A DNA stretch of 64,000 bases from an uncultured bacterium (lineage in GTDB: Bacteria > Babelota > Babeliae > Babelales > Babelaceae): contig OY970209.1 in NCBI GenBank assembly GCA_963713855.1, forward strand, positions 1,440,001-1,504,000, written 5' to 3'. A model generated the notes under the pieces. That model ran no database searches, was not told the DNA's origin, and saw only the letters and a program-made list of their open reading frames with translations. The translations under genes were made by a program, and so were the position numbers. Below, in pieces: positions 5,725 through 56,893 of this stretch. Position 1 is the first letter of the stretch. Every line of letters starts with the position of its first letter.

Positions 5725-6147
5725 ATGAAGTTTTTAGGAAGATTACTATGGTCAATTAGTATAATGTTAACGCCGGTAACAGCTCTACAGGCAGCGGTAT
5801 TGACCATTGAAAATAGAGGAATATATTCTGTTCAGATCGATCTTTCTTTAGTCGACCGCGATAACCAAATCAAAAGTGCCGGTATACTTACTGGCACAGC
5901 TCCTGCAGGAAGGATGATACGACTTGATGCGGGCAAAAATTGTGTAACAACAATCAGGCTTTCCAAGGGAGAGGGAGGACTTGATGTCCATGGTGACATT
6001 ACGAAATACAATGTTAACGACGCCGATGCCAGCGGAGCAAAGCAGGTAAGAATATGTAATAATGCAACCATTACCTTAACAAATGAGCCCGTTCCAGGCG
6101 TATGTCCCGTACGGTGGACTATTCAAAATCCATCAATCCCACACTAA
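5725..6147 (+). CDS. Small secreted protein, tandem paralog B
   Basis: AAGGAG RBS before ATG 5725; motifs shared with 5203-5631. Confidence 0.8.
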   Translation: MKFLGRLLWSISIMLTPVTALQAAVLTIENRGIYSVQIDLSLVDRDNQIKSAGILTGTAPAGRMIRLDAGKNCVTTIRLSKGEGGLDVHGDITKYNVNDADASGAKQVRICNNATITLTNEPVPGVCPVRWTIQNPSIPH

Positions 6148-26471: not shown

Positions 26472-27245
26472 TTATTCTGAGCTATCTTTTAAGCAGCCTT
26501 TTAAAAGTTCTACTTCTTCAATTGGCGTAAGATTCGAGATACCCATAAGCAAGAGAATTGACTTTACCAGAAAATTAGGCATGCGTATAGCTTCAGAAGC
26601 CTCATAGTTTTTTATCATAGAAAGCACTACATCGGATCTACCATTTTTAACAAGTTTTTGGCATGCAAATAAATCTGCCTCACGTTCGTGGTCAATTTTA
26701 TGGGCAGCATGCATAGATGATTGCAAAGTGCTAAATAGCGGTATTCCTATCAAATATGAAAACCCCAATAACGATTTGCCTGCTTTAAAATGAGCAAAAG
26801 ACTTATACAAAAAATAGCACGCCAAAATGGCCGCTATTAAAGACTCCGCCCTCATGAGTATAGATTCTTGTATAGCTGTAGCGTGATCATAATGAAGGTG
26901 ACCCACTTCATGATAAATTGCAAAGAGTTTTTCAGCTTGAGAGTATGCTGATGTTGATTGAGATGGAAATACGATAAATCTTTGTCCCTCCTGCCTAAAC
27001 GTATGAGCCCATTCACCACCGCTTTCTAAAATAATAACGTTCTCGGTAATTCCGCACTCATCTAAAACTTTTCGCGCCTCAGTCTCAACCAAAACTGAAG
27101 CCGGCCTAAGATTTCTTTCGGACATAACGCGCGCCTTGATGCTCTCTGATTCTAATATATCATTACTACCGGTGGCATAAACGCAATTGATTAATAAGAT
27201 ACCCATACAAAAAATCTTTAAAGCACAACTCATGCGAAACCTCAA
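26472..27245 (-). CDS. M48-like zinc metalloprotease
   Basis: YHEVGHLH, two TM segments, HEREADLFA. Confidence 0.8.
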   Translation of the reverse strand: MRFRMSCALKIFCMGILLINCVYATGSNDILESESIKARVMSERNLRPASVLVETEARKVLDECGITENVIILESGGEWAHTFRQEGQRFIVFPSQSTSAYSQAEKLFAIYHEVGHLHYDHATAIQESILMRAESLIAAILACYFLYKSFAHFKAGKSLLGFSYLIGIPLFSTLQSSMHAAHKIDHEREADLFACQKLVKNGRSDVVLSMIKNYEASEAIRMPNFLVKSILLLMGISNLTPIEEVELLKGCLKDSSE

Positions 27246-29887: not shown

Positions 29888-30160
29888 GATAGGTTTTACC
29901 AGACTATTCGAGATCAGACCATTGGCGTTAATATCCAGCTCGAGCAACTCCAAGAGGACCAAGATAATTATTACGTTACAGCAAAATGCCTTCTGGGTTT
30001 AGCTAATCGAGCATTTGAACTTTTTACAAGTTCTGAAATTGAAGAAAAGCGACAGGTTATGAAACTTGTACTATCGAACGTCGAGATGGCCGGAAAAGCG
30101 CTCTACGACGTTCAACCGCCATTTGATATGATCCTAAAATGTTCGGATCGTCAACTATGG
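29888..30160 (+). pseudogene. 3' remnant of the large serine recombinase (copy 1)
   Basis: Aligns to 56609-56884 (EDNYY.TAKCLLGLANRA...KCSDRQLW). Confidence 0.92.
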
Positions 30161-30192
30161 CGTACCTAAGAGACTTATTCAGGAACAGAGAA
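30132..30192 (+). repeat. R1: attP-like junction (recombinase arm + right arm)
   Basis: TCCTAAAATGTTCGGATCGTCAACTA-TG-GCGTACCTAAGAGACTTATTCAGGAACAGAGAA (one G missing). Confidence 0.88.
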
Positions 30193-30566: not shown

Positions 30567-31450
30567 CTATTTAGTAGGAGGTCTAGTTTTTCCGCCGGGA
30601 TAGATATTATTTACACGATCTCCATCGGGATTTACAATATCCAATGTGGACCGGCATGACCATAAGGACCGCTTGGTACCCAATAGTTGCCATCTTTATC
30701 TGGCCAACCATGCTGATCAGTTTCGGGATGAGGCTGCTTTTTCCCATCAGAATTTTTGGGAGGAATATATCCATCTTTTTCACCAGGCTTATCAGGAATG
30801 GAAAGGTCATAAAGACGGTTGAACTCTTCCTAATTTGCAGTTCTTCCTGATGCACCAAACAACTTTTTAAAAGCTCCATTTACAAAGAATTTTGAAGCTA
30901 TTCCACCTAAAGTAGCGAGAACTCCCATTCCTACGGCATTCCAGCCAACAAAAGCTAAACCTTGGCCTGCTCCCCATGCAAAAAGCGGTATTATATTATG
31001 CACTAATATATCTTCTCTTGATACACAGAAATTATGATACTCCTCTACGGTAAGATCATAAGCAATATCATGAGTAACTATTTCTAAGATATGACCAACT
31101 TTAACGAACTCTAAGCAATTTTTTAAAAGTGAATGGCCTACTTTGAGCTCTTCTGCTTTTACCCACTTTCCTTCTAAAGGGAGATAAAATATGTGATCAT
31201 CTGCTACAACTATTTCCTCGCCATTAACAACAACGCGAAAAAAACGTGAAGCTCCTTTATGTTCTATATGCGTAACACTTCTCTCAATACAAGAGCCCTT
31301 AAAATCAAAACAAATGACTTTATCACCTTCTTTAAGCTCTTCTATTGGTATGTAGCCATTTGAGACTTTAACTAAAGTTCCACTTAAAAACCCTTCTCCT
31401 CGAGCAACGTTTATCGCCAAGAAACATATAAGTATTAAGATTCTTTTCAT
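30567..31450 (-). pseudogene. Hint-domain polymorphic toxin with Ntox37-like C-terminus, disrupted
   Basis: Signal + Hint (GFLSGTLV...YDLTVEEYHNFCV..ILVHN). In-frame TAG at 30830-30832, then PGEKDGYIPPK..GWPDKDGNYWVP..GHAGPHW, a 1-nt frameshift near 30641, then DIVNPDG..NIYPGG. Confidence 0.85.
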
Positions 31451-33334: not shown

Positions 33335-33458
33335 TGAGTTCTCTCTACATAGTTCTTTAGCAAAAGCGATTTTGCTGGTAATTTTATCTTTTAATAATAA
33401 ACAAAAAACTTCCTAGAAAGGTGATAACCGCTTTTGAATGGTCTTATCGTAATAGATC

Positions 33459-33793
33459 TTGCAATTACCGTCAAACCTGGATATACCCACTTTTGATCTA
33501 ATAATCACTTCTTAATGAAGGATAAGCCAACGACCGTACTACTAACATATAGCGCGTATGAGCGTCGAGGAAGTACGTTCAAATTTGGCTCGCATAACTT
33601 CAAAGATGCAGATGCTTCAGCATCAGCGTCGAGCTCCTTCAAGCAGTAAGCTCATTCCTAGCCTAATGGTCCGAATGTCAGCTTCCATTTTAAGCGTCAA
33701 AGCTTACACGAAGCTTTTTCAATACTTTAAGCAAATTACACAACACACGATCAGCATAACTCATATGGCAAGGGCCATGAGGAAAACTATGTT
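33459..33793 (+). ncRNA. Promoter + conserved structured leader/ncRNA, copy A
   Basis: TTGCAA-17-TATACC; homologous to 51849-52158 with a covarying stem. Confidence 0.6.
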
Positions 33794-34031
33794 TTTGATT
33801 TATTTTTGAGTTCTGACGTAGAAGAGAAGCGTCATATTATTAAACTTGAGAGTGGAAGCTGAGTATGTCCTCTATGACGTTCAACCGCCATTCGATGTGA
33901 TCCTAAAATGTTCGGATCGTCAACTATGGCGGTACCTAAGCAACGCATTCAGGAATCGAGAAGCAAGCTTAAGGCAGTTACCAGCCTCTTTAAAAACTCT
34001 TGATACATTTTGCAGACAAAATGTCCTTTAA
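33794..34031 (+). pseudogene. 3' remnant of the recombinase (copy 2) with its attP-encoded tail
   Basis: LFLSSDVEEKRHIIKL...LYDVQPPFDVILKCSDRQLWRYLSNAFRNREASL... Confidence 0.9.
33901..33962 (+). repeat. R3: intact attP-like junction
   Basis: TCCTAAAATGTTCGGATCGTCAACTA-TG-GCGGTACCTAAGCAACGCATTCAGGA; 26-bp arms symmetric about TG. Confidence 0.92.
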
Positions 34032-35158: not shown

Positions 35159-36400
35159 TTAAGCAAGCCGTTTCATGTTCCACACAGCATACGCTTTTTC
35201 AATTTGTTGGCGAATTTGTGATGGTGGAATAAAAAGATAAGCATAGTTTTTTACCACTTCACCAGACTGACAAATGCCTTTTTGTTCCCATGCGTTGATA
35301 AGAGTTGCAATGTTAAATTCATGTGCAATGAGAAAGCCTATTATATAAAGGGCTCTCTCAACATGCGACGGATGTCGATCGGATAAACCTATTGTAATAA
35401 TACTTGGCTTTTCGTCTTCTTCTTCAGAAAGAAGTATGGTTATAAAGTTTAGTATGGCACTCATTTCTCCTAACTTTAAAAGTTGTCTCAATGCGAAAAG
35501 GTCAGCTCGTTGCTCAGTTGTTCGCTCATATAACGACAGAAGCTTGTTCTTTTCGCCTTCGGGCGGGATCCAAAGGAAACCGTAACGCTTAAGCACTCTT
35601 TGAGCTTCTGGCTCGGCTAATGCTTCCACTAATATTTTTCCGATCTTTGTATGACCGAAAGAAGGGAGTGTATGTATGCCAAGCTCTAGATAATCTTTAA
35701 TATCTTTTTGGTCGGATTTTACTAAAGGCTCGTTTAGGAAGCCCTGCATATCAACATCTCGAGTATCTCCGTGAACAATATGTCCGATCTCATGATAGAG
35801 GGTATACAGTCGAGAATCCAAATCAGGTGTTTTACACATGATTATATAGCTCTTCAAAGGTTTAGTGACTGCTTCACCAGCAAAGGATTTGGTTGTACTA
35901 AGGGCCCTTACTTCTTCTTGAAGACCCGCCAAACGTACGCCTTCGTCAACCAGTTTTTTCTGCATCGCTGTTGGTATTTCAACACCTTTTTCTTTAATAA
36001 GCAAATCAAGCTCAACTTCAGTTATTACTTCCTTTAGCCATGTTCTATCTATCCCATATATTGAAGAAGCTGGTACTAGTCCAAGAAGCTCTCTTAAAAA
36101 ATTGTAAGGATATAATAATATGTTCGGCCTCACACTAAGGTTAGGCTGAACAAGTCCATAATTAGCTCGATAAGCAACATTTTCTAGCCAATCAAAAAAC
36201 GTCAAGTCAGATTTGTCCAACTCTTTTAACAGCTCTTGTTTCCAACTCTTGTAATCTTTTCCTTCCACAGTGGGTTTTTCATTATAAACAAAGCTTCCTT
36301 TGTCAAAATCCATTACAAGGGTTATTCCACGAGGTGTTTTGCCATAACTGACTACAGTGAAGGCAAAAGATAAAATAATCGCTTGCATGATTTTTTTCAC
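35159..36400 (-). CDS. Exported M48-like zinc metalloprotease with one YNxLRE repeat
   Basis: YHEIGHIVH, TEQRADLFA, RHPSHVERALY. Confidence 0.8.
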   Translation of the reverse strand: MKKIMQAIILSFAFTVVSYGKTPRGITLVMDFDKGSFVYNEKPTVEGKDYKSWKQELLKELDKSDLTFFDWLENVAYRANYGLVQPNLSVRPNILLYPYNFLRELLGLVPASSIYGIDRTWLKEVITEVELDLLIKEKGVEIPTAMQKKLVDEGVRLAGLQEEVRALSTTKSFAGEAVTKPLKSYIIMCKTPDLDSRLYTLYHEIGHIVHGDTRDVDMQGFLNEPLVKSDQKDIKDYLELGIHTLPSFGHTKIGKILVEALAEPEAQRVLKRYGFLWIPPEGEKNKLLSLYERTTEQRADLFALRQLLKLGEMSAILNFITILLSEEEDEKPSIITIGLSDRHPSHVERALYIIGFLIAHEFNIATLINAWEQKGICQSGEVVKNYAYLFIPPSQIRQQIEKAYAVWNMKRLA

Positions 36401-38099: not shown

Positions 38100-39020
38100 A
38101 TGAAAAATCTTCTAGCTTTTATTTATTTTTTAGCAGCAGCCTGCGCTCATGGAGAAGGCTTCTTAGCAGGAACTTTAGTTAAAACTCCAAATGGCTACAC
38201 TCCTATAGAAAAACTGCAAGAGAAAGATTTAGTAATTTGCTATGACTTTCAGGGAAACTGTGTCACAAGAAGGATAACAAAGACTTTTAAGCAATCTACC
38301 TCTGATTATATCCGCTTGTGGATTAACGATGAGTTAATTGAAGTTGCTTCTGATCACAAATTTTTTCTACCTCTTGAAAATCGCTGGATCGAAGCGAAAT
38401 GCGCTAACTCTAAGCATGTTTTTTTGAGTAGATGTATCGATTTAGTTCTAATTACTGCTGCTCAATATCTGACAAAACAAGCAGAAGTTTACGACATTAC
38501 GGTAGAAGAGTTTCATAACTTTTGTGTTTCCAATCAAGATGTTCATGTGCACAATATATCACCTGTAGTAGCAATTGGTATCTCTTGGGCCTTTGAAGGA
38601 CCTATTGTCTGGACAGCTTCTATCGGACTTGCCGGCTTAGGATGGGGAATTGGATACTTGCTTTCAAGTAATCGTCATGCGAGACCGCAAACTCACTTTA
38701 ATGCCGACGAATTTGGACAAAGATTTAACAACAAAAAGCATCACGAAGAAAGCTATCACACAACAGCAGCTAGTGGAGGATCTTCTGATGACTTTGATGA
38801 TGAAGATCCTTATAAAGAAGAACAACACAAAAGCAAGCAAATGAAAAAGCTTTCCGAAGGAGAAATTAAAAAATTGGAAGCTGCTGGAATTGATGTGCAC
38901 ACGCTTAAGCCAAATTCAAAATTTGATCTTTTCAAGAATCAGGCCGGTGAAATTTTCGTAAAACCCAAAGCAGGCAATGGTCCTGGCGACTCAACAGGCT
39001 TTAACATCAATAATTTTTAA
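38100..39020 (+). CDS. Hint-domain polymorphic toxin with Ntox33-like C-terminus
   Basis: Signal + Hint (GFLAGTLV..VYDITVEEFHNFCV..VHVHN) + hydrophobic linker + GIDVHTLK..FDLFK..IFVKPK.G.GPG..TG. Confidence 0.85.
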   Translation: MKNLLAFIYFLAAACAHGEGFLAGTLVKTPNGYTPIEKLQEKDLVICYDFQGNCVTRRITKTFKQSTSDYIRLWINDELIEVASDHKFFLPLENRWIEAKCANSKHVFLSRCIDLVLITAAQYLTKQAEVYDITVEEFHNFCVSNQDVHVHNISPVVAIGISWAFEGPIVWTASIGLAGLGWGIGYLLSSNRHARPQTHFNADEFGQRFNNKKHHEESYHTTAASGGSSDDFDDEDPYKEEQHKSKQMKKLSEGEIKKLEAAGIDVHTLKPNSKFDLFKNQAGEIFVKPKAGNGPGDSTGFNINNF

Positions 39021-39023
39021 GCT

Positions 39024-39422
39024 ATGAAATACGAATACAAAACCCTTGTCCGTCTTAAAATTTTGAGCACGACTCTTAGCCCCGAACAAATCACCTATGA
39101 ATTAGGAGTTGCTTGTGAACAATCTTGGAAGATTGGTGATAATCGAGCATCGAGTATTATTAAAGAAACAACCAATGGGTGGGTTCTTGGTTCAGGGTTT
39201 TCTCAATCAACACCCCTGGAAGAACAACTTGAGCCTTTCCTTAACCGTTTAACTACCTATTCTGCTAAAATTCGTCGATTATCTGTACACAATATTGTTG
39301 AGCTTTCTTGCATTGTCTACGCTGTGGCCCCTCCTGCTCTCTATTTTAATAAGAACGTTATCTCATCCATTGCTAAACTCGGGGCAAATTTTGACATCGA
39401 TTTGTACATTTTAGCAAAATAG
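39024..39422 (+). CDS. DUF4279-type immunity protein
   Basis: PEQITYELGV..WKIGD, W.L.S, LGANFDIDLY; 3 nt after the toxin stop. Confidence 0.85.
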   Translation: MKYEYKTLVRLKILSTTLSPEQITYELGVACEQSWKIGDNRASSIIKETTNGWVLGSGFSQSTPLEEQLEPFLNRLTTYSAKIRRLSVHNIVELSCIVYAVAPPALYFNKNVISSIAKLGANFDIDLYILAK

Positions 39423-41539: not shown

Positions 41540-41604
41540 TGGCTCTTCGAAAGCCGCGATATTGAAAAAGCAAAGCGATATTGGCTTGATTGCGAAAGGT
41601 TATT

Positions 41605-41907
41605 ATGAAAAGAAGATTTAGGGATTATCAAGAAAAACCTTACGCAGACTTAAAGGACTCAGAATTAGCTAGTGCCTATCTTAACGTAGCGCTTATGGAG
41701 GAAGATCCACGCGTCTTTTTATTTGCGTTAAAGAATGTTTATGAAGCTCAAGGCGGAGAAATGGCTGATCTTGCTCGAAAGACAAAATTGAGTCGCGAAA
41801 ATCTTTATCGCATACTTTCAGAAAAAGGCAATCCCAAGCTTAGTATCGTATCTTTGCTTAATGCTATAGGATTCTCACTCGCCGTGCAACCTCGTAAAAA
41901 TAAATAA
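41605..41907 (+). CDS. HTH antitoxin, near-identical paralog of 54113-54415, with only the last ~55 nt of its toxin upstream
   Basis: 41551-41907 aligns to 54059-54415. Confidence 0.9.
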   Translation: MKRRFRDYQEKPYADLKDSELASAYLNVALMEEDPRVFLFALKNVYEAQGGEMADLARKTKLSRENLYRILSEKGNPKLSIVSLLNAIGFSLAVQPRKNK

Positions 41908-48008: not shown

Positions 48009-50285
48009 TTAACGCCCCAACCAATATCCTAGCTTTGTAATGATTTTGTATACCTTACTTAGAGATGACATGCTTTCTCTGTAAAGAGATTCTTGCTGAC
48101 GAATCCACTTAAAATCAAGCTGTTTTAATGACCATATATGAGGGCTTTTTGCAGTCTCATCTAGAAGTAGATTATAGCAACAAAGAGCTTCTTGCTCATG
48201 ATAGTTTGATAACGTGCTAGAAACTTCTTGTGCTTCAAATTCATCAAGGTGAAAGTTAAGCTGCTTAATTAATTCCCTTATTGTAAGCATAGTAATATGA
48301 GTATCATTATAATATTCATACCAGGCTGCATAATAAGTTTCCTGCATCCAAAGAAAATTAATCTCGGCAAAGGAAACTGCTGGAGATTGACCCAAAAGCT
48401 CTCTAAGCAGATTGTAATTATAAAGAGCTTGTAATTCATAATCAGCAGGCTTAGAGATAACACGCTCCATTTCGCGTTGAGCAATATAGTAAAAGTGCTT
48501 TATAGATGAAAAAAGCATATTTACTTGCGCGTAAAGAGTTGTTAATCCCTCTCTCTGCCAGCTGGCCTCAACATGCATTTTCCACTGTTTGAAAGATTCT
48601 GTTGTTGCATCTTGTTGCCATATTTGCTGCGCTTTTGAAAAAACTTCATTATTGACAGCATCTTTAGATGATGCAGCAAAAGCGATGCTTGGTTTGTGTG
48701 CTTGAATGTCTTTCTTTGAATACCATTCATCAAATGCTTGATTAATATCTAGACCCTTATCCACCAAGAAACCTATCATATAGAGTGCTCTCTCAAAGTT
48801 TGAAGGATGCTCATCTTCATTGCCATACGCAGTGATATAATTTGATAAAGCATAAAGTTCAATAGTTGCTAAAATAGGATCTAACTTGCCAAGCTTCAGA
48901 AGCTTATCACATGCAAAGAGGTCTGCTTGCTGCTCATACTCTCGCGCAAGAGTTGTTTTCTTGTATTCGTAATCATTCAGAGGAAGCACCCATAATGGCA
49001 ACATACTTGATACTATACTGTTAATAGTTTTTCCCAAGCGTGTTTTATTGGTAAAAGCTTTTTTTCCTATATTGATAAATTTGCTAATCTTCTCTCTCCC
49101 TTGGATAAAATCATCGCTGGATAGCAGTAAATCAATTTCTTCTAGAGAAATAGTGTTATTCCGCATTTCAGGAGTTTTATCATGCTTAAGCATGATGTGT
49201 CCGAGTTCATGGTAAAATACTTTATATTGGTGATTATGCTCATTCGCCAATCCTAAAACAATATAAAAGTTTATTCCATTACCATAGGCATTTGTTCCGC
49301 CTTTCCCTTTACGTACAGCTAAAACAATACTATCATCTAGATGAAATGCTTCTCGTGCTTCTGTCAAAATATTTTCTAAAATATCTGGTGCTAATTCATA
49401 ATGATATTTTTCAAGAAATTCGTTAAGTAAAGCTTCTTTTCTTATACTTTCAATCCAAGGGTAATCTATTTCGGTAATGGTTTTAGCATTGTCCAAATGT
49501 AACATTTCTCGCAACAAATTATAGCAATAAAGAAATCTCTTTTTAAAAAAAAGATTGTTTGAATCCGCTCTAAATTCTTTTAAAGCATTTTCTATTTTTA
49601 TTAAAATATCAACTATCTTGCAAGCAAATGACTCTATTTTTCTTTTTTTCCACTCCTGCTTGATTTCGTCATTCCATGTTACATAGACATGATCGTAAAG
49701 CCAATCGCTATCTATAGTGCTTAAAAAAGTTCGACCAAGCGGAAATTCACTTAGTTCGTTTAGAAGATTATAATTAAAAAGAGCTTGTCGTTTATGGGCA
49801 CCTATGGGTTCATTATTAGAGTTTAAAAAATGATTAAGTGACGTTACCAATTTGTTTTTTTGCTCTTTTTTAGTATCTATCCCTTGTTTTTCCCATATCT
49901 GTTTTTTCTCTTCTTTCCATAGAGGGTATACACAGTCATTAATCCACGTATCATCTATTTGATCTAAGGTGTGTATTAAAGGAAAAGATAAACTTTCTCT
50001 TAAGAAGTTGTATGTTACTAGCACCGCTCCTTGATAAAAGCTATTATTAAGATTTTGCCGTAGAGCGCTTAAATCGTGATCAAAGCGGTAAATCAAGTCC
50101 AGAATACGGTCTTCAGGTGGCTGCTTTGACCAAAAATACTCTAGAGCTTGTTTCCAGTCACTGTAAGAAAATTTTGATGTCTCTGTATATGGTATTGTGT
50201 TTTCTGCTTTTAAGAAAGAGGGTAACGTATATAAGCCAATGGAAAACAAAAGCGCTATTCCAACTATAAATTCCTTATAATTCAC
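48009..50285 (-). CDS. Exported M48-like zinc metalloprotease flanked by five YNxLRE repeats
   Basis: YHELGHIML, YEQQADLFA, EHPSNFERALY; paralog of 35159-36400. Confidence 0.82.
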   Translation of the reverse strand: MNYKEFIVGIALLFSIGLYTLPSFLKAENTIPYTETSKFSYSDWKQALEYFWSKQPPEDRILDLIYRFDHDLSALRQNLNNSFYQGAVLVTYNFLRESLSFPLIHTLDQIDDTWINDCVYPLWKEEKKQIWEKQGIDTKKEQKNKLVTSLNHFLNSNNEPIGAHKRQALFNYNLLNELSEFPLGRTFLSTIDSDWLYDHVYVTWNDEIKQEWKKRKIESFACKIVDILIKIENALKEFRADSNNLFFKKRFLYCYNLLREMLHLDNAKTITEIDYPWIESIRKEALLNEFLEKYHYELAPDILENILTEAREAFHLDDSIVLAVRKGKGGTNAYGNGINFYIVLGLANEHNHQYKVFYHELGHIMLKHDKTPEMRNNTISLEEIDLLLSSDDFIQGREKISKFINIGKKAFTNKTRLGKTINSIVSSMLPLWVLPLNDYEYKKTTLAREYEQQADLFACDKLLKLGKLDPILATIELYALSNYITAYGNEDEHPSNFERALYMIGFLVDKGLDINQAFDEWYSKKDIQAHKPSIAFAASSKDAVNNEVFSKAQQIWQQDATTESFKQWKMHVEASWQREGLTTLYAQVNMLFSSIKHFYYIAQREMERVISKPADYELQALYNYNLLRELLGQSPAVSFAEINFLWMQETYYAAWYEYYNDTHITMLTIRELIKQLNFHLDEFEAQEVSSTLSNYHEQEALCCYNLLLDETAKSPHIWSLKQLDFKWIRQQESLYRESMSSLSKVYKIITKLGYWLGR

Positions 50286-51637: not shown

Positions 51638-51848
51638 CCTGTATTTTTATGTGCGCTCTAAAAATTACTTTCAATTTCGTAAAAAAGCATTATGGAATTT
51701 AGAAGCTTTCTTACTTAAGTATCAATCTATTTAAGAGTCTTTACTAAAACATGGCATATTTAATCTATGTAAAAGCTCTTAATTGTCCAACTAGCTGTTG
51801 GACTTTTCATACACAAGATGATAGATAGAAATAAAACGTTAATAAATC

Positions 51849-52153
51849 TTGCAATCACCATCAAGCATCCATATACTCATCTTTATCTAATAATCACTTC
51901 TTAATGAAGGGTAATCCAATGACTGTACTACTAAAATATAGCGCATATAAGCGTTTAGAAAGTACATTCACACTTGGCTTATATAACCCGCAAGATAGAC
52001 TTTGCTTGTTCGAACTACAAGCTTATTCGCATCAACCCGAATGTTAGCTTTCTCTTTAACCGCCAAAGCTTATATAAAACTTTTTTAATACTTAAATAAA
52101 GTCAATAGATGATCAGCACATATCTCTTGTAGTTAAGAGTCGTGAGGAAGACT
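51849..52153 (+). ncRNA. Promoter + conserved structured leader/ncRNA, copy B, upstream of the rep region
   Basis: TTGCAA-17-TATACT; homologous to 33459-33793. Confidence 0.6.
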
Positions 52154-52420
52154 ATGTTTAAAAGAGATCCTCCGGCTAGGCCAAAGGCAATTTTGACCAT
52201 TGATCAGCGTAATAAATTTGCACATTTCTTTATCTTGCTTATGACTATTGATAAGCAATTACAAAAGAAAAGCAAATCAAAAGAAATAAAGAAATCAAAA
52301 ATCAAACTAAATGACGAGACAAGCTTCACCACTAGGCGAACCTTGTTTTTCTTACTAGCTTATTTATCTTTAAGTAGTCAAAGAGCTCCCCAACCCTGCA
52401 CTTGTGAGAGAATGCTTTAA
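52154..52420 (+). CDS. Small basic hypothetical protein of the element backbone
   Basis: GAGGAA RBS and ATG conserved in both leader copies. Confidence 0.5.
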   Translation: MFKRDPPARPKAILTIDQRNKFAHFFILLMTIDKQLQKKSKSKEIKKSKIKLNDETSFTTRRTLFFLLAYLSLSSQRAPQPCTCERML

Positions 52421-52642: not shown

Positions 52643-53760
52643 ATGATAGATACTGTCGTTTTAATACTGAGCCAAGATATGTATCATATCAGTGAGCCTG
52701 ATAAGTTTGTACCATCTGCTCGATGGATTGGCAATCCATCGCCAGCTCTTCATGGTATTTGCTCTAAGCAAAACCCCACTAAAAAAGAGCTGTTAAGTCG
52801 CATATATAAGCCACGCCTTCTCTTTCATATCACTATAACAAGGAAAGCAAACAAGAAATAACACTTAAAATTGAGCTTTCATTACCCAAACTAGTTTTTG
52901 GCAATAACTTCAATGAGCTCATGCGTAAAGACTTTACCTCAATACTACAAAAGCTAGTTTATGTGCTCAAAGAAATGGGAGTCATAGTAACCGAAGAAGT
53001 GCTCACGAAGGCGCCTGTTTCCGCTATTCATTATTCTAAGAATATTCCCTTAACTGACGGTTCTTTACCTTACCATTTCATTAACAAAGCCAAAGAAGCC
53101 AATCTTAAGTTGTCACTAGATACTAATCAAACAGATTATAGCGATGGTCATAGCTATAAATGGCATTGTAATTCCTATGAAGTTGTCTTTTACGACAAGA
53201 TCAAAGACCTTGAAATGGCTAAAAAGAGTAGTAAGCGTGCATTAGAAAAGGACAGTGATGTACAGCTCAATCTTTTCGAAGCTTTGCGTAAAAGAAAGAA
53301 GTTTGAAGTTTTACGCATAGAAGTTCGGCTTAATAAGCGCCAGAAAATGAAGCAGCTTTTTAAAGATCTTGAGATTATATCAAACCTCACTTTGAAGAGT
53401 TTGTTCAAGCCGGCTATCTCCAAAAAAGTTTTATTACATTACCTTGATGAGTTAGAAAGGAAAAGGCCGGCTTTGCTTGATTATAGAACATCAAGTGATC
53501 AAGCACTCTTAGCTGCTTTAGTTATTAATAACTCCAAGCTGAATCCGAAAGCTGTCCTTCAAATGTTCGGCCTAAAAAAAGCTTTAGAAACAGTTACAGC
53601 TCGTGAGCTGAGAATTATCTTTGCTAAACATCATTCAAGAAGCTGGAATCGCCTTATAGCTGACGTTCAGAAGCTAAAGCTCCCTATAGCACAACGTTCT
53701 TTGACAGTTCTAAGGGATTTGATCAAAACTAAGCCCTTAAGATTACCAATCTTGCGTTAA
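52643..53760 (+). pseudogene. Putative rolling-circle replication initiator (phage/plasmid gene II/X, Rep_trans-like), one frameshift
   Basis: MIDTV..., YKPRL|TLS...LKIELSLPKLVFGNNFNEL, AIHYSKNI, VFYDKIKD, LRIEVRL; 1-nt loss near 52820 joins the two ORFs. Confidence 0.7.
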
Positions 53761-53786: not shown

Positions 53787-54116
53787 ATGAGCTTGATAAA
53801 AATTATTATTTACTCTACAAACACAGGCAAAGAGCCTTATTCCGAGTGGGAAGATGGACTTGATAAGATGGCAGTAGCTATCGTTAAAAACAGATTAGAC
53901 CGGATTCGCCTTGGTAATTTTGGTGATGCTAAAATGATCAAGGAAGGAGAGGGAATTTGGGAACTGCGCATCGATTTTGGTCCAGGCTATAGGATTTATT
54001 TTGGAAAGAAGGGAAAAAAAATCATTATCTTATTAGTGGGTGGTGAAAAAAGGAGTCAAAGCCGCGATATTGAAAAAGCAAAGCGGTATTGGCTTGACTG
54101 CGAGGGGTTATTATGA
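53787..54116 (+). CDS. RelE/HigB-like addiction-module toxin
   Basis: GKEPYSEW, RLDRIRLGNFGDAK, IWELRIDFGPGYRIYF, GGEKRSQSRDIEKAK. Confidence 0.93.
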   Translation: MSLIKIIIYSTNTGKEPYSEWEDGLDKMAVAIVKNRLDRIRLGNFGDAKMIKEGEGIWELRIDFGPGYRIYFGKKGKKIIILLVGGEKRSQSRDIEKAKRYWLDCEGLL

Positions 54117-54415
54117 AAAGAAGATTTAGGGATTATCAAGAAAAACTTTACGAAGACTTAAAAGACTCAGAATTAGCTAGCGCCTATCTTAACGTAGCGC
54201 TTATGGACGAAGATCCACGCATCTTTTTACTTGCATTAAAGAATGTTTATGAGGCTCAAGGTGGAGAAATGGCTGATCTTGCTCGAAAGACAAAATTAAG
54301 TCGCGAAAATCTTTATCGCATTCTTTCGGAAAAAGGCAATCCCAAGCTCACGAGTATCGTATCTTTGCTTAATGCTGTAGGATTCTCTCTTGCCGTGCAA
54401 CCTCGTAAGAAATAA
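54113..54415 (+). CDS. HTH addiction-module antitoxin
   Basis: ATGA overlap with the toxin; LSRENLYRILSEKGNPKL. Confidence 0.93.
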   Translation: MKRRFRDYQEKLYEDLKDSELASAYLNVALMDEDPRIFLLALKNVYEAQGGEMADLARKTKLSRENLYRILSEKGNPKLTSIVSLLNAVGFSLAVQPRKK

Positions 54416-55435: not shown

Positions 55436-56893
55436 ATGAAAGCCATACTTATCGCTCGCGTGAGCACAGAAGAACAAAAAGAAGCAGGTAATTCTTTACC
55501 AGCTCAAATTTCACGCCTTAAAAGCTATTGTGAAAGTAGAGATTTTGAGGTTATACGTACTTGTAGCTTTGATGAAAGTGCTTACTCTAATGACCGTTCT
55601 GAGTTTGACCGTATTATTGATTTTATCTTAAAGCAAAAAGAAAGGGTTGCTGTCTGCGCTGATAAAGTTGATAGGCTTTCGCGTAATGTCTTTGATAAAC
55701 GCATCTCTGTTTTATATGAAAAAGCACTGAGCGATGAAATAGAACTGCATTTTGTATCGGATGGTCAGGTTATTAATAGCCGTATATCAGCCGTTGAGAA
55801 GTTTCAGTTTAGTATTAGCTTAGGCCTTGCCAAGTATTATTCTGATGCCATAAGCGATAACGTTAAAGCGTGCCCACGAACAAAAGCTACGTAAAGGTGA
55901 ATGGCTTGCTAAAGCGCCTTATGGTTATAGAAATGTAAAGAATGCGAATGGCAATACTGACATTATCATTGACGATTATGCTTCTCAAATCGTTAAAAAG
56001 ACGTTTGAATTGTATGCGACTGGCTCTTATTCAATGGAATTGCTCTGTAAAAAGCTTAAGAATGATTATGGCCTTGAGTGGCCAAAAGGCTATTTAGGTA
56101 AACTCCTTGATAATCCTTTTTACTACGGCGTTATGGTCATCAAAGGGAAGGAATATCCTCATCGATACCCAACTGTTATTACCCAAGCTCTTTTTGAGGA
56201 AGTACAGAGCATCAAAGAGGGATTTAAGAAACAGCCTTTTAAGTACGCAGGTAAGCCATACGTCTATCGAGGTCTTTTACGTTGTGGCCACTGCGGATTA
56301 GCCATAACACCGGAAAAGCATAAAGGATTCGTATATTACCATTGCACGCAGTATAAAGGTAAGCACGGAGCAAAATGGCTTCGGGAAGAGGAAATCACGC
56401 GCCAATTAGTAAAGTTTTTAGGAATCTTCAAATACCAGAGTACATCCTAACAGAAATTACTCATACGCTCGATACTCTTCATAAGGATAAAATAGATTTT
56501 CATAACAAAGAGTTCGATAAGCTTACTACTGAACAGAAAACACTTACTAAGATGATTGATAATCTTTATATAGATAAACTCAAGGGGAGAATTACTGAGA
56601 GCGACTATGACAGATTTTACCAGTCTCTTAAAGATCAAAGCATTGATATTACTATTAGACTTGAGCAACTTCAAGAGGCTGAAGATAACTACTACCTTAC
56701 AGCAAAATGCCTTCTGGGTTTGGCTAATCGAGCATTATGAATTTTTACGAGTTCTGAAGTTGAAGAAAAACGGCAGGTTATGAAACTTGTACTATCGAAC
56801 GTCAGGATAGAAGCTGGAAAAGTGCTCTACGACGTTCAATCACCATTTGATTTCATCCTAAAATGTTCGGATCGTCAACTATGGCGGGGCTAA
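55436..56893 (+). pseudogene. Large serine recombinase (resolvase + recombinase + Zn-ribbon + coiled coil), with indels
   Basis: ARVSTEEQ, DKVDRLSRN, APYGY, NPFYYG, LLRCGHCG, YYHC. Indels near 55866, 56407 and 56735-56746. Ends ...KCSDRQLWRG* with the stop (56891-56893) inside the tRNA antisense. Confidence 0.93.
56856..56887 (+). repeat. attR-like junction: recombinase arm + tRNA-Asp 3' end
   Basis: TCCTAAAATGTTCGGATCGTCAACTA-TG-GCGG; left arm identical to R1 and R3. Confidence 0.9.

Follow-up and report, generated by a model that had tools for sequence, protein, structure and literature searches.

Introduction

In plasmid R1 and related replicons, expression of the replication gene requires translation of a leader peptide and not the product of that translation, and the leader peptide genes are strongly divergent, as stated in the part of PMC5304414 that treats them. 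In the I-complex plasmids, repA requires translation of repB, according to the corresponding part of PMC10286972. Here we analyse a repeated DNA segment from an uncultured bacterium of the family Babelaceae, found in a stretch of 64,000 nucleotides (assembly GCA_963713855.1, contig OY970209.1, positions 1,440,001 to 1,504,000 of the forward strand; hereafter the window). The names carried by its protein homologs likewise place the organism in the Babeliales/Dependentiae. We conclude that the repeat probably comprises the promoter and the ~270-nt transcribed leader of an operon encoding an ORF92-like protein and a rolling-circle replication initiator (Rep), and that an upstream small open reading frame (uORF) and hairpins in this leader likely tune protein amounts. 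We favor this reading because of the promoter, the maintained uORF, the hairpins at both ends of the uORF, the fixed place of the leader before the operon, and its absence where there is no ORF92-like gene.

Several described systems share features with this locus. In R1 (tap/repA, CopA), in the I-complex plasmids (repB (repY)/repA (repZ), RNAI) and in the Pseudomonas REx-C plasmids, one promoter drives a stem–loop leader and a short ORF ahead of the replication gene, as here. The sequence of the short ORF is free to vary while its translation counts, a property deduced for the Babeliales leader and described for the plasmids in the relevant parts of PMC5304414 and PMC10286972. The control module is in all cases portable: it accompanies some rep genes and is missing from others. 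The pT181 family of plasmids, whose repC is controlled by countertranscript-driven attenuation, has like our locus a long rep leader before a rolling-circle initiator, with a weak likeness in initiator fold (RepD/RepDE); pT181 is not known to have a leader peptide. Finally, the Ff phage M13 has a structured region directly 5' of its replication gene, and the Babeliales Rep is of the kind of its gene II protein (G2P), with a similar N-terminus. In M13, the origin nick lies ~225 nt upstream of gene II, which starts at position 6006.

The leader directly precedes the replication genes of an integrative element

The initial annotation of the window, made from its sequence alone, had described a structured, non-coding RNA or leader present twice in the backbone of an element. 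The homology of the two copies was recovered both by MAFFT alignment and by blastn: copy A (33450–33800) and copy B (51840–52159) are 71% identical over 348 alignment columns (E 1.4e-41), and a search of the whole genome, a single contig of 1.52 Mb, retrieved these two copies and no others. Both finish, as the annotation had it, at GAGGAAxACTATGTTT, the shared 3' end being GAGGAAnACTATGTTT, with its ATG at 33789 in copy A and 52154 in copy B. In copy B, the leader directly adjoins the Shine–Dalgarno (SD) sequence and ATG of the ORF92-like gene, itself followed by Rep; the repeat is indeed a conserved backbone leader of an integrative element and lies immediately 5' of the replication genes.

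In copy A, the ORF92-like gene is deleted after its first two codons: within ~15 nt of ATGTTT (33789–33794) the sequence passes into what is left of the recombinase 3' end, with an attP-like site (33835–33968). Since ATGTTT runs straight into this remnant, copy A is the same backbone as copy B with the middle deleted. In addition, the position of the small-ORF start reads ACG in copy A. In copy B, Rep and the recombinase are both broken, the former being split by a frame change and the latter lying in three pieces, so that copy B is part of a dead element and both copies in this genome are fossils. The retention of the leader in the deleted copy had been put forward as a sign of a cis function. 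The leader has been kept there, but this is weak evidence, because copy A is a fossil with an ACG start and no downstream gene, and because the end-points of the deletion are possibly accidental.

A third, closely related copy of the leader (copy C) was found in contigs of biofilm metagenomes. Among the differences listed between copies C and B, in order as far as 52444, none falls within 51900–51983, a segment that covers the SD sequence and start codon of the uORF and hairpin 1, while 51984–52047 contains 15 substitutions (4/5/6 by codon position), and substitutions and indels are numerous from there on to 52151. Divergence amounts to ~5% in the 88-aa ORF, and the Rep stretch contains indels. 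As copy C is unlike copy B 5' of 51900, the 26-mer that is identical in copies A and B (33496–33521 and 51885–51910), as initially reported, is not invariant, and the CTTC/GAAG mini-hairpin proposed with it as a conserved feature is absent from copy C.

An element-specific promoter and an ORF92-like gene accompany the leader in related loci

The DNA upstream of Rep was gathered from 69 related loci (29 + 40), a recognizable Rep N-terminus being present in 66. In 50 of these 66 Babeliales loci, an ORF92-like gene was detected by jackhmmer just 5' of Rep or fused to it. The sequence 5' of the ORF92-like start is conserved within sublineages only (e.g. L020/L024/L027, L009/L013 and L025/L029), and it is the architecture that recurs. 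Searches for DNA homologs of the leader by blastn in 60 relatives and in 261 genomes of the order yielded only chance matches of 19–35 nt, and plasmid and phage collections yielded none. Exact 19-mer scans gave 9 metagenome, 10 genome and 0 viral matches, all of them due to chance, as similarity did not reach beyond the match and the surroundings encoded no element proteins. Nothing significant came from comparisons with the Rep loci and Rep proteins either, whether by fuzzy motif, blastn, tblastx or blastx. The searches thus revealed no DNA homolog beyond the leader's own lineage, where positional analogs do exist.

What these analogs share at the sequence level is the promoter, the only source of widely shared k-mers in the leaders. 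The TTGCAA-17-TATAC(C/T) arrangement noted initially is present at 33459–33487 in copy A and 51849–51877 in copy B. A pair consisting of TCTTGCAAT and a TATAAT-like hexamer separated by 15 or 16 nt occurs 180–330 nt 5' of the ORF92-like ATG in 26 of 49 related leaders when the pattern is applied strictly; a looser pattern (TCTTGCAAT with at most three mismatches, 14–16 nt, TATAAT with at most two mismatches, 150–360 nt before the ATG) retrieves 36 leaders, copy B among them. The pattern occurs a single time in the whole genome under study, and is therefore not simply the common promoter of the host: the promoter is conserved and element-specific.

The 16 Rep loci without an ORF92-like gene are also without such a leader (some have a promoter-like site 50–70 nt before Rep). 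On account of this joint absence, the leader and the ORF92-like gene are seen to travel together as one control module.

A terminator-like hairpin (51785–51803, GTCCAAC-TAGCT-GTTGGAC followed by TTTTCA) was also observed ~45 nt 5' of the copy B promoter, which it could insulate from upstream transcription.

The frame of an upstream ORF is maintained, its peptide sequence is not

According to the initial annotation, the two copies share no ORF. This is wrong: the same frame is open in both from the ATG in CTTAATGAAGG (33515–33649, 44 aa, in copy A; 51904–52047, 47 aa, in copy B), and an internal, SD-preceded ATG of copy B (51919), which lies inside the main hairpin (hairpin 1), matches the position of a small ORF in related elements. 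To define this uORF in a uniform manner, we retained in each leader the most 5' ATG with a purine-rich SD sequence before it, 45–125 nt after the −35 box, whatever the length of the ORF. The sample consisted of 39 leaders, namely the 36 retrieved with the promoter pattern (copy B included), two picked by hand and copy A. All but three of these (L023, L074 and L094) have such an ATG, which leaves 36 leaders; they fall into 23 sequence clusters unlinked by blastn. The frame that it opens continues for at least 18 codons in 35 of the 36 leaders, as compared to 4/36 and 14/36 for the two shifted frames; the region is thus not simply non-coding, as had been claimed. The uORFs are 18–49 codons long, with the SD sequence and start ~40–55 nt past the promoter, and their stop codon lies 46–151 nt before the ORF92-like ATG (36 leaders; 106 nt in copy B).

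By contrast with the frame, the peptide is free to change. In 16 sublineage pairs, substitutions in the uORF are distributed over the three codon positions as 122/101/117, versus 346/270/458 in the ORF92-like gene for 14 of the same 16 pairs, yet in 12 of these 16 pairs the uORF has either no gap columns or a number of them divisible by three. In copy C, 10 codons of the uORF are changed among the differences listed, 8 of them non-synonymously, all within codons 22–40 and without creating a stop. We conclude from the open frame and the in-frame gaps on the one hand, and from the distribution of substitutions and the non-synonymous changes of copy C on the other, that the uORF frame is maintained and its peptide sequence is not. 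The uORF region is nevertheless often better conserved than its flanks (e.g. L088/L092, 7% versus 20% and 33%), which suggests that a constraint acts at the nucleotide level.

These data bear on the idea that the uORF encodes a functional small protein, such as a CopG-like repressor, a recombination directionality factor or a type I toxin. An SD-preceded ORF at a fixed position would fit such a role, and the peptides are alike within some sublineages (e.g. seven of 25–28 aa that read MYAIIDI...MAYNSCL). We nonetheless hold it to be very improbable: the uORF lacks the third-position excess of the neighbouring ORF92-like gene, peptides of 18–49 aa show no similarity from one cluster to another, 8 of the 10 codons changed in copy C are non-synonymous, and the similarity within sublineages coincides with the hairpin stems. 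A type I toxin–antitoxin system was considered separately and rejected, since there is no codon-position bias, since no antisense promoter of the family's own type was found and since the peptides, as judged by eye, are not uniformly hydrophobic.

Hairpins lie at both ends of the uORF

The compensatory stem change that the initial annotation had pointed out between the two copies is real: inside a CCAA/TTGG stem, CGTACT/AGTACG in copy A (33536–33541/33572–33577, the 33535 originally given being one base off) is replaced by TGTACT/AGTACA in copy B (51924–51929/51961–51966), and RNAalifold scores this C-G to U-A exchange as a pair with both sides changed and pairing kept (columns 46/88). Over hairpin 1 as a whole, 2 of the 28 paired columns are substituted between copies A and B, both belonging to the compensatory pair, versus 6 of the 21 unpaired ones (Fisher p = 0.06), and the folding z-score of the whole leader is −2.5 for copy A and −1.2 for copy B. 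The structure signal from copies A and B alone is weak. In hairpin 2, which contains the uORF stop codon, stem changes are to wobble pairs only (C-G to U-G between A and B; A to G at 52025, opposite T, between B and C) and the loop varies. Hairpin 3, a weak terminator-like structure, is perfect in copy A (33699–33719), and two A to G changes in copy C (52076 and 52079) apparently restore a perfect stem. Of the structured RNA first described, a hairpin with one compensatory pair stands; the covariation evidence is thin. The Rfam search that had been suggested gave no family match for either copy: at the gathering threshold, the window contains three tRNAs and nothing else, and at E ≤10 the two copies score 12–19 bits, as compared to thresholds of 41–146.

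A hairpin at the start codon of the uORF, or 15–25 nt past it, is found in many lineages with stems of unrelated sequence: seven loci have TGTACGC/GCGTACA enclosing ATGATCT/AGATCAT, others have ATCAGG/CCTGAT, and the A/B lineage has TGTACT/AGTACA. The start-codon stems of the seven-member group are preserved with G-U changes, a four-member group displays a G-C to A-U change, and in the seven-member group the SD sequence AGGAAT pairs with ATTCCT just past the hairpin (partly by eye). A hairpin thus makes up at least part of the nucleotide-level constraint on the uORF region. Neither copy A nor copy B was retrieved from the window with a covariance model built on the seven-member start-codon hairpin (best E 0.61, elsewhere).

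Alternatively, the leader could be a purely structured RNA that works as a riboregulator or is targeted by an antisense RNA, in the manner of pT181, R1 or ColE1-type control, with the uORF being incidental. Several of the above observations would fit: the retention of hairpin 1 with a compensatory change and its lack of any listed difference between copies B and C, the conservation of the uORF region above its flanks without codon bias, the stem changes that create G-U pairs on the sense strand, and the burial of both SD sequence and AUG in a long hairpin in the seven-member group. This alternative seems unlikely to us, however, as it leaves unexplained why the frame is open in 35 leaders out of 36 (versus 14/36 for a shifted frame) and why indels are mostly in frame. 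Besides the lack of an Rfam match, two types of signal expected elsewhere in such systems were looked for in the leaders. When the minus strand of 37 leaders was scanned with a position weight matrix of the family promoter, i.e. of the element's own promoter type only, the best score passed the 95th percentile of shuffled sequences in two of them, at inconsistent positions. Likewise, there is no general terminator or attenuator: a hairpin followed by a T-run was present in 4 of 36 leaders, versus 1–9 in ten rounds of shuffling, with criteria that missed the weak hairpin and T-run of copy A.

In seven loci (L030, L075, L081, L085, L088, L092 and L093), we also noticed a conserved TTACGCCAT ~85 nt before the ORF92-like start. 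It is complementary, through segment TACGCCAT, to the hairpin 3' arm ATGGCGTA and to the ORF92-like start ATGGC (partly by eye). This four-segment arrangement could constitute a pairing switch; the duplex energy of the complementary segment is unexceptional.

Conserved boxes and the possibility of an origin

Apart from the promoter, two short boxes recur in the leaders. TAATGAA, which closely follows the promoter and is present in 11 of 38 leaders, is among the commonest 7-mers; in copies A and B it is contained in the shared 26-mer, which also includes the beginning of the SD sequence GAAGGG (51906–51911). TC[AG]GCA is found 27–44 nt 5' of the ORF92-like ATG in 12 of 36 leaders (mean of shuffles 0.97, maximum 5), 7 of which also carry the inverted partner that completes a TGCTGA-N4-6-TCAGCA palindrome; copies A and B have only GATCAGCA. 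Both boxes may additionally be binding sites for an element protein.

The leader, especially its 3' half with the T-run/AATAC motif, the TCAGCA box and the palindromes, might alternatively be an origin, either the double-strand origin nicked by Rep or a single-strand origin, like the Ff region 5' of gene II; this would explain why it was retained in copy A, beside an attP-like site. Rep is G2P-like, and a short AT-rich segment, CTTTTTTAATACT in copy B and CTTTTTCAATACT in copy A, resembles the M13 stretch TTCTTTAATAGT of the nick region. The TC[AG]GCA box, often half of a perfect palindrome and at a fixed distance from the ORF92-like ATG in 12 of 36 leaders, would also be in keeping with an origin. 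We regard an origin as improbable all the same. In a scan that covered 1.2 kb upstream of Rep, the family showed no conserved nick sequence of the M13 type, CTTTAATAG in a hairpin loop: of the 67 upstream regions, 3 contain CTTTAATA on the sense strand and 4 on the antisense strand, and TTTAATA[CG] is present in 15 versus 9. Furthermore, the k-mers widely shared by the leaders are those of the promoter alone, copies A and B carry only half of the palindrome, and no such leader accompanies Rep in the 16 loci without an ORF92-like gene, where an origin should still be needed. Nor does Rep need an upstream origin, given that the origin of the pT181 family is located inside rep. As for single-strand origins, those of the ssoA type are long imperfect hairpins with an RS_B site and a CS-6 loop consensus, and function in one orientation. 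By eye, the strings TAGCGC and AAGCGT were spotted in hairpin 1. All in all, of the roles first proposed for the repeat, the control of replication by an RNA is retained in the form of cis control of replication-gene expression, the best reading, while a single-strand origin is unsupported by the tests run.

Translation of the uORF as a proposed means of control

If the leader is a control region, as we favor, the presence of a single promoter suggests that the uORF and the ORF92-like gene are carried by one transcript. By analogy with the leader-peptide control of plasmid rep genes, it would be translation of the uORF that matters, and not the peptide. A ribosome on the uORF must open both hairpins, of which hairpin 1 holds the start and hairpin 2 the stop; translating ribosomes would melt the two structures, and melting would alter the folding of the downstream leader or the accessibility of the ORF92-like/rep start.

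As in the R1 and I-complex systems, a poorly conserved short ORF is located upstream of the replication genes, on what is predicted to be the same transcript (35 of 36 leaders; 122/101/117). Unlike theirs, however, it does not overlap the next start or ribosome-binding site, as the Babeliales uORF ends 46–151 nt earlier; no family-type antisense promoter was found opposite the Babeliales leader (2/37, for the element's own promoter type); and the start codon of the small ORF is itself in a hairpin. What the leader precedes is not a theta-type initiator gene but an ORF92-like gene, which stands before that of a rolling-circle G2P-like Rep or is fused to it. The element is integrative, with a large serine recombinase, and the sequences show no similarity. 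By analogy, the logic of the Babeliales leader comes closest to the control of plasmid replication through leader peptides. It nonetheless falls outside the R1/I-complex systems, since its uORF is uncoupled, no antisense RNA gene was found with the family's own promoter type and sequence similarity is lacking. With respect to pT181, the A/B/C lineage shows a resemblance in the weak hairpin and T-run of its leader (52065–52086), but a terminator hairpin just before the rep start is not a feature of the family (4/36, versus 1–9 in shuffles) and antisense promoters of the family's own type were, here too, not found in the Babeliales leaders. Unlike the corresponding region of M13, the Babeliales segment is read as a transcribed leader with a small ORF that is presumably translated, and no other inovirus genes are present in the element.

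A number of observations weigh against a control leader of this type. Thermodynamic support for the start-codon hairpin is modest: the mean z-score of a 72-nt window around the start codon is −1.15, with 9 of 38 leaders below −2, as compared to −0.66 and 5 of 34 for a control window 90 nt downstream; two leaders, L025 and L029, have no hairpin, the copy A window has a z-score of +0.33, and the start codon has at least two paired bases in only 21 of 38 minimum-energy folds. The leaders yielded no conserved segment that would pair at long range with the ribosome-binding site of the ORF92-like gene (mean z-score −0.10; 2/36 below −2), and a distance of 46–151 nt between uORF and ORF92-like gene means that there is no tight translational coupling of the kind seen in R1/I-complex leaders. 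As regards sampling, selection by promoter pattern left 13 of the 49 leaders outside the uORF check, two of those selected (L074 and L094) have doubtful promoters and no SD-preceded ATG, the start codon of L023 is GTG and was missed by a rule restricted to ATG, and the leaders are kin by descent, so that the counts overstate independence.

A more ambitious proposal, which we entertain only tentatively, sees in the promoter, the uORF, the hairpins and the ORF92-like gene the parts of a portable and hitherto undescribed cassette for copy control, serving the G2P-like rolling-circle initiators of Dependentiae integrative elements. In such a cassette, ribosome entry at a hairpin-buried start would act as the sensor, an antisense RNA would be unneeded, and the TCAGCA palindrome would serve as operator or origin for feedback by the ORF92-like protein and Rep.

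If the leader does control the operon, it provides a first handle on replication-gene regulation in a widespread, undescribed family of integrative elements in which an inovirus-type rolling-circle initiator occurs together with a large serine recombinase; our search of the literature on serine recombinases and mobile genetic elements of the Dependentiae found no account of such elements. It would also mean that the leader-peptide-style control of Proteobacteria theta plasmids has an analog in a distant, mostly uncultured phylum. The design principle itself is familiar and of an ordinary kind for plasmid control: what is new is the undescribed Babeliales element family, and no long-standing question is opened. 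For annotation purposes, a recurrent small ORF and its promoter have been overlooked by gene callers.

Downstream genes and surrounding island

The positions of the features of the leader copies and of the operon are compiled in Table 1.

Table 1. Features of the leader copies and of the downstream operon (coordinates of the window)
Feature	Positions	Strand	Basis or remark
Copy B promoter: TCTTGCAAT, −35 TTGCAA (51849–51854), 17-nt spacer, −10 TATACT (51872–51877)	51847–51877	+	sequence
26-mer identical in A and B, 5' untranslated region of the small ORF	51885–51910	+	copy A counterpart 33496–33521
Hairpin 1: CCAA/TTGG, TGTACT/AGTACA and GCGC/GCGT tiers; uORF start codon inside	51916–51977	+	folding, alignment
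uORF, 42 codons + TAG, SD GAAGGG 8 nt upstream	51919–52047	+	copy B sequence, position as in related elements
Hairpin 2: AAGCTTATTC / GAATGTTAGCTT; uORF stop (52045–52047) in 3' arm	52019–52050	+	alignment
Hairpin 3 + T-run, AAAGCTT-ATATA-AAACTTT-TTT, terminator-like, weak	52065–52086	+	read from sequence
GATCAGCA box, half of the TGCTGA-N4-6-TCAGCA palindrome of related leaders	52111–52118	+	k-mer/motif count
SD GAGGAA (52144–52149) and ATG (52154–52156) of the ORF92-like gene	52144–52156	+	sequence
ORF92-like gene, 88 aa from ATG; conserved motif at the N-terminus, tail rich in Lys	52154–52420	+	jackhmmer in relatives
Rolling-circle Rep, inovirus G2P kind, with frame change (52643–52861 + 52921–53760)	52643–53760	+	profiles, fold
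Copy A, whole: fossil leader	33450–33800	+	repeat family D5; ATGTTT 33789–33794
Copy A promoter: TCTTGCAAT, −10 TATACC; TTGCAA-17-TATACC at 33459–33487	33457–33487	+	sequence
Copy A hairpin 1: GCCAA/TTGGC, CGTACT/AGTACG, GCGC/GCGT; position of the B start codon = ACG (33530–33532)	33526–33589	+	folding

The ORF92-like protein has no match in Pfam, PHROG, NCBIfam or Atlas. In L005, L008, L011 and L019, an in-frame fusion joins it to Rep (~461–466 aa); elsewhere it is mostly encoded by a separate, often overlapping ORF, and it thus behaves as an optional N-terminal module of Rep.

Homologs of Rep are unbroken ORFs of ~372 aa; they number more than 1000 and are present in 64 of the 261 Babeliales genomes searched. 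The assignment of Rep to the G2P kind relies on several lines of evidence. Its matches to phrog_702 ('replication protein') are weak and repeated (E 5.7e-5 to 0.01). With an AlphaFold model of predicted local distance difference test (pLDDT) score 78, Foldseek gave 7 BFVD matches at E ≤0.001, one of which is an Inoviridae G2P (6.2e-5), and, in the PDB, weak matches to the staphylococcal rolling-circle initiators RepD/RepDE (ranks 5 and 11, probability 0.35). The N-terminus, MIDT.VL, resembles MIDMLVL of M13 gene II. A direct scan of the homologs produced no Pfam match, and the only match of the profile among PDB sequences was due to chance (E 0.06).

In the 3' direction from copy B, the element comprises, in order, the 88-aa ORF, the broken rep, a Gp49/HI1420 toxin–antitoxin pair, two small genes on the opposite strand and the large serine recombinase (55436–56887), with three overlapping pieces and a 3' terminus that extends into the 3' end of tRNA-Asp. 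The recombinase 3' end is present in three copies (30066–30163, 33835–33932 and 56790–56887), and a repeat family, ..TGGCGGTACCTAAGCGACGCATTCAGGAAT.., has nine copies between 31665 and 50762, spaced 0.8–7 kb; together, these look like a stack of cassettes at tRNA-Asp. The HI1420-type antidote gene and the end of the Gp49-like killer gene are duplicated (41550–41900 and 54058–54411), with 93–94% identity versus 71% for the leaders. Two cassettes encode PT-HINT polymorphic-toxin C-termini (30830–31450 and 38100–39422), one of them having an Ntox33 tip followed by a DUF4279 gene, likely the immunity protein. Finally, three ORFs (26472–27245, 35159–36400 and 48009–50285) display weak matches to metalloproteases and may represent paralogous cargo: two of them match Pfam Peptidase_M48 (E 0.002 and 0.00055, no better than the curated cut-off), the third a metallo-protease family of PHROG (E 0.0017).

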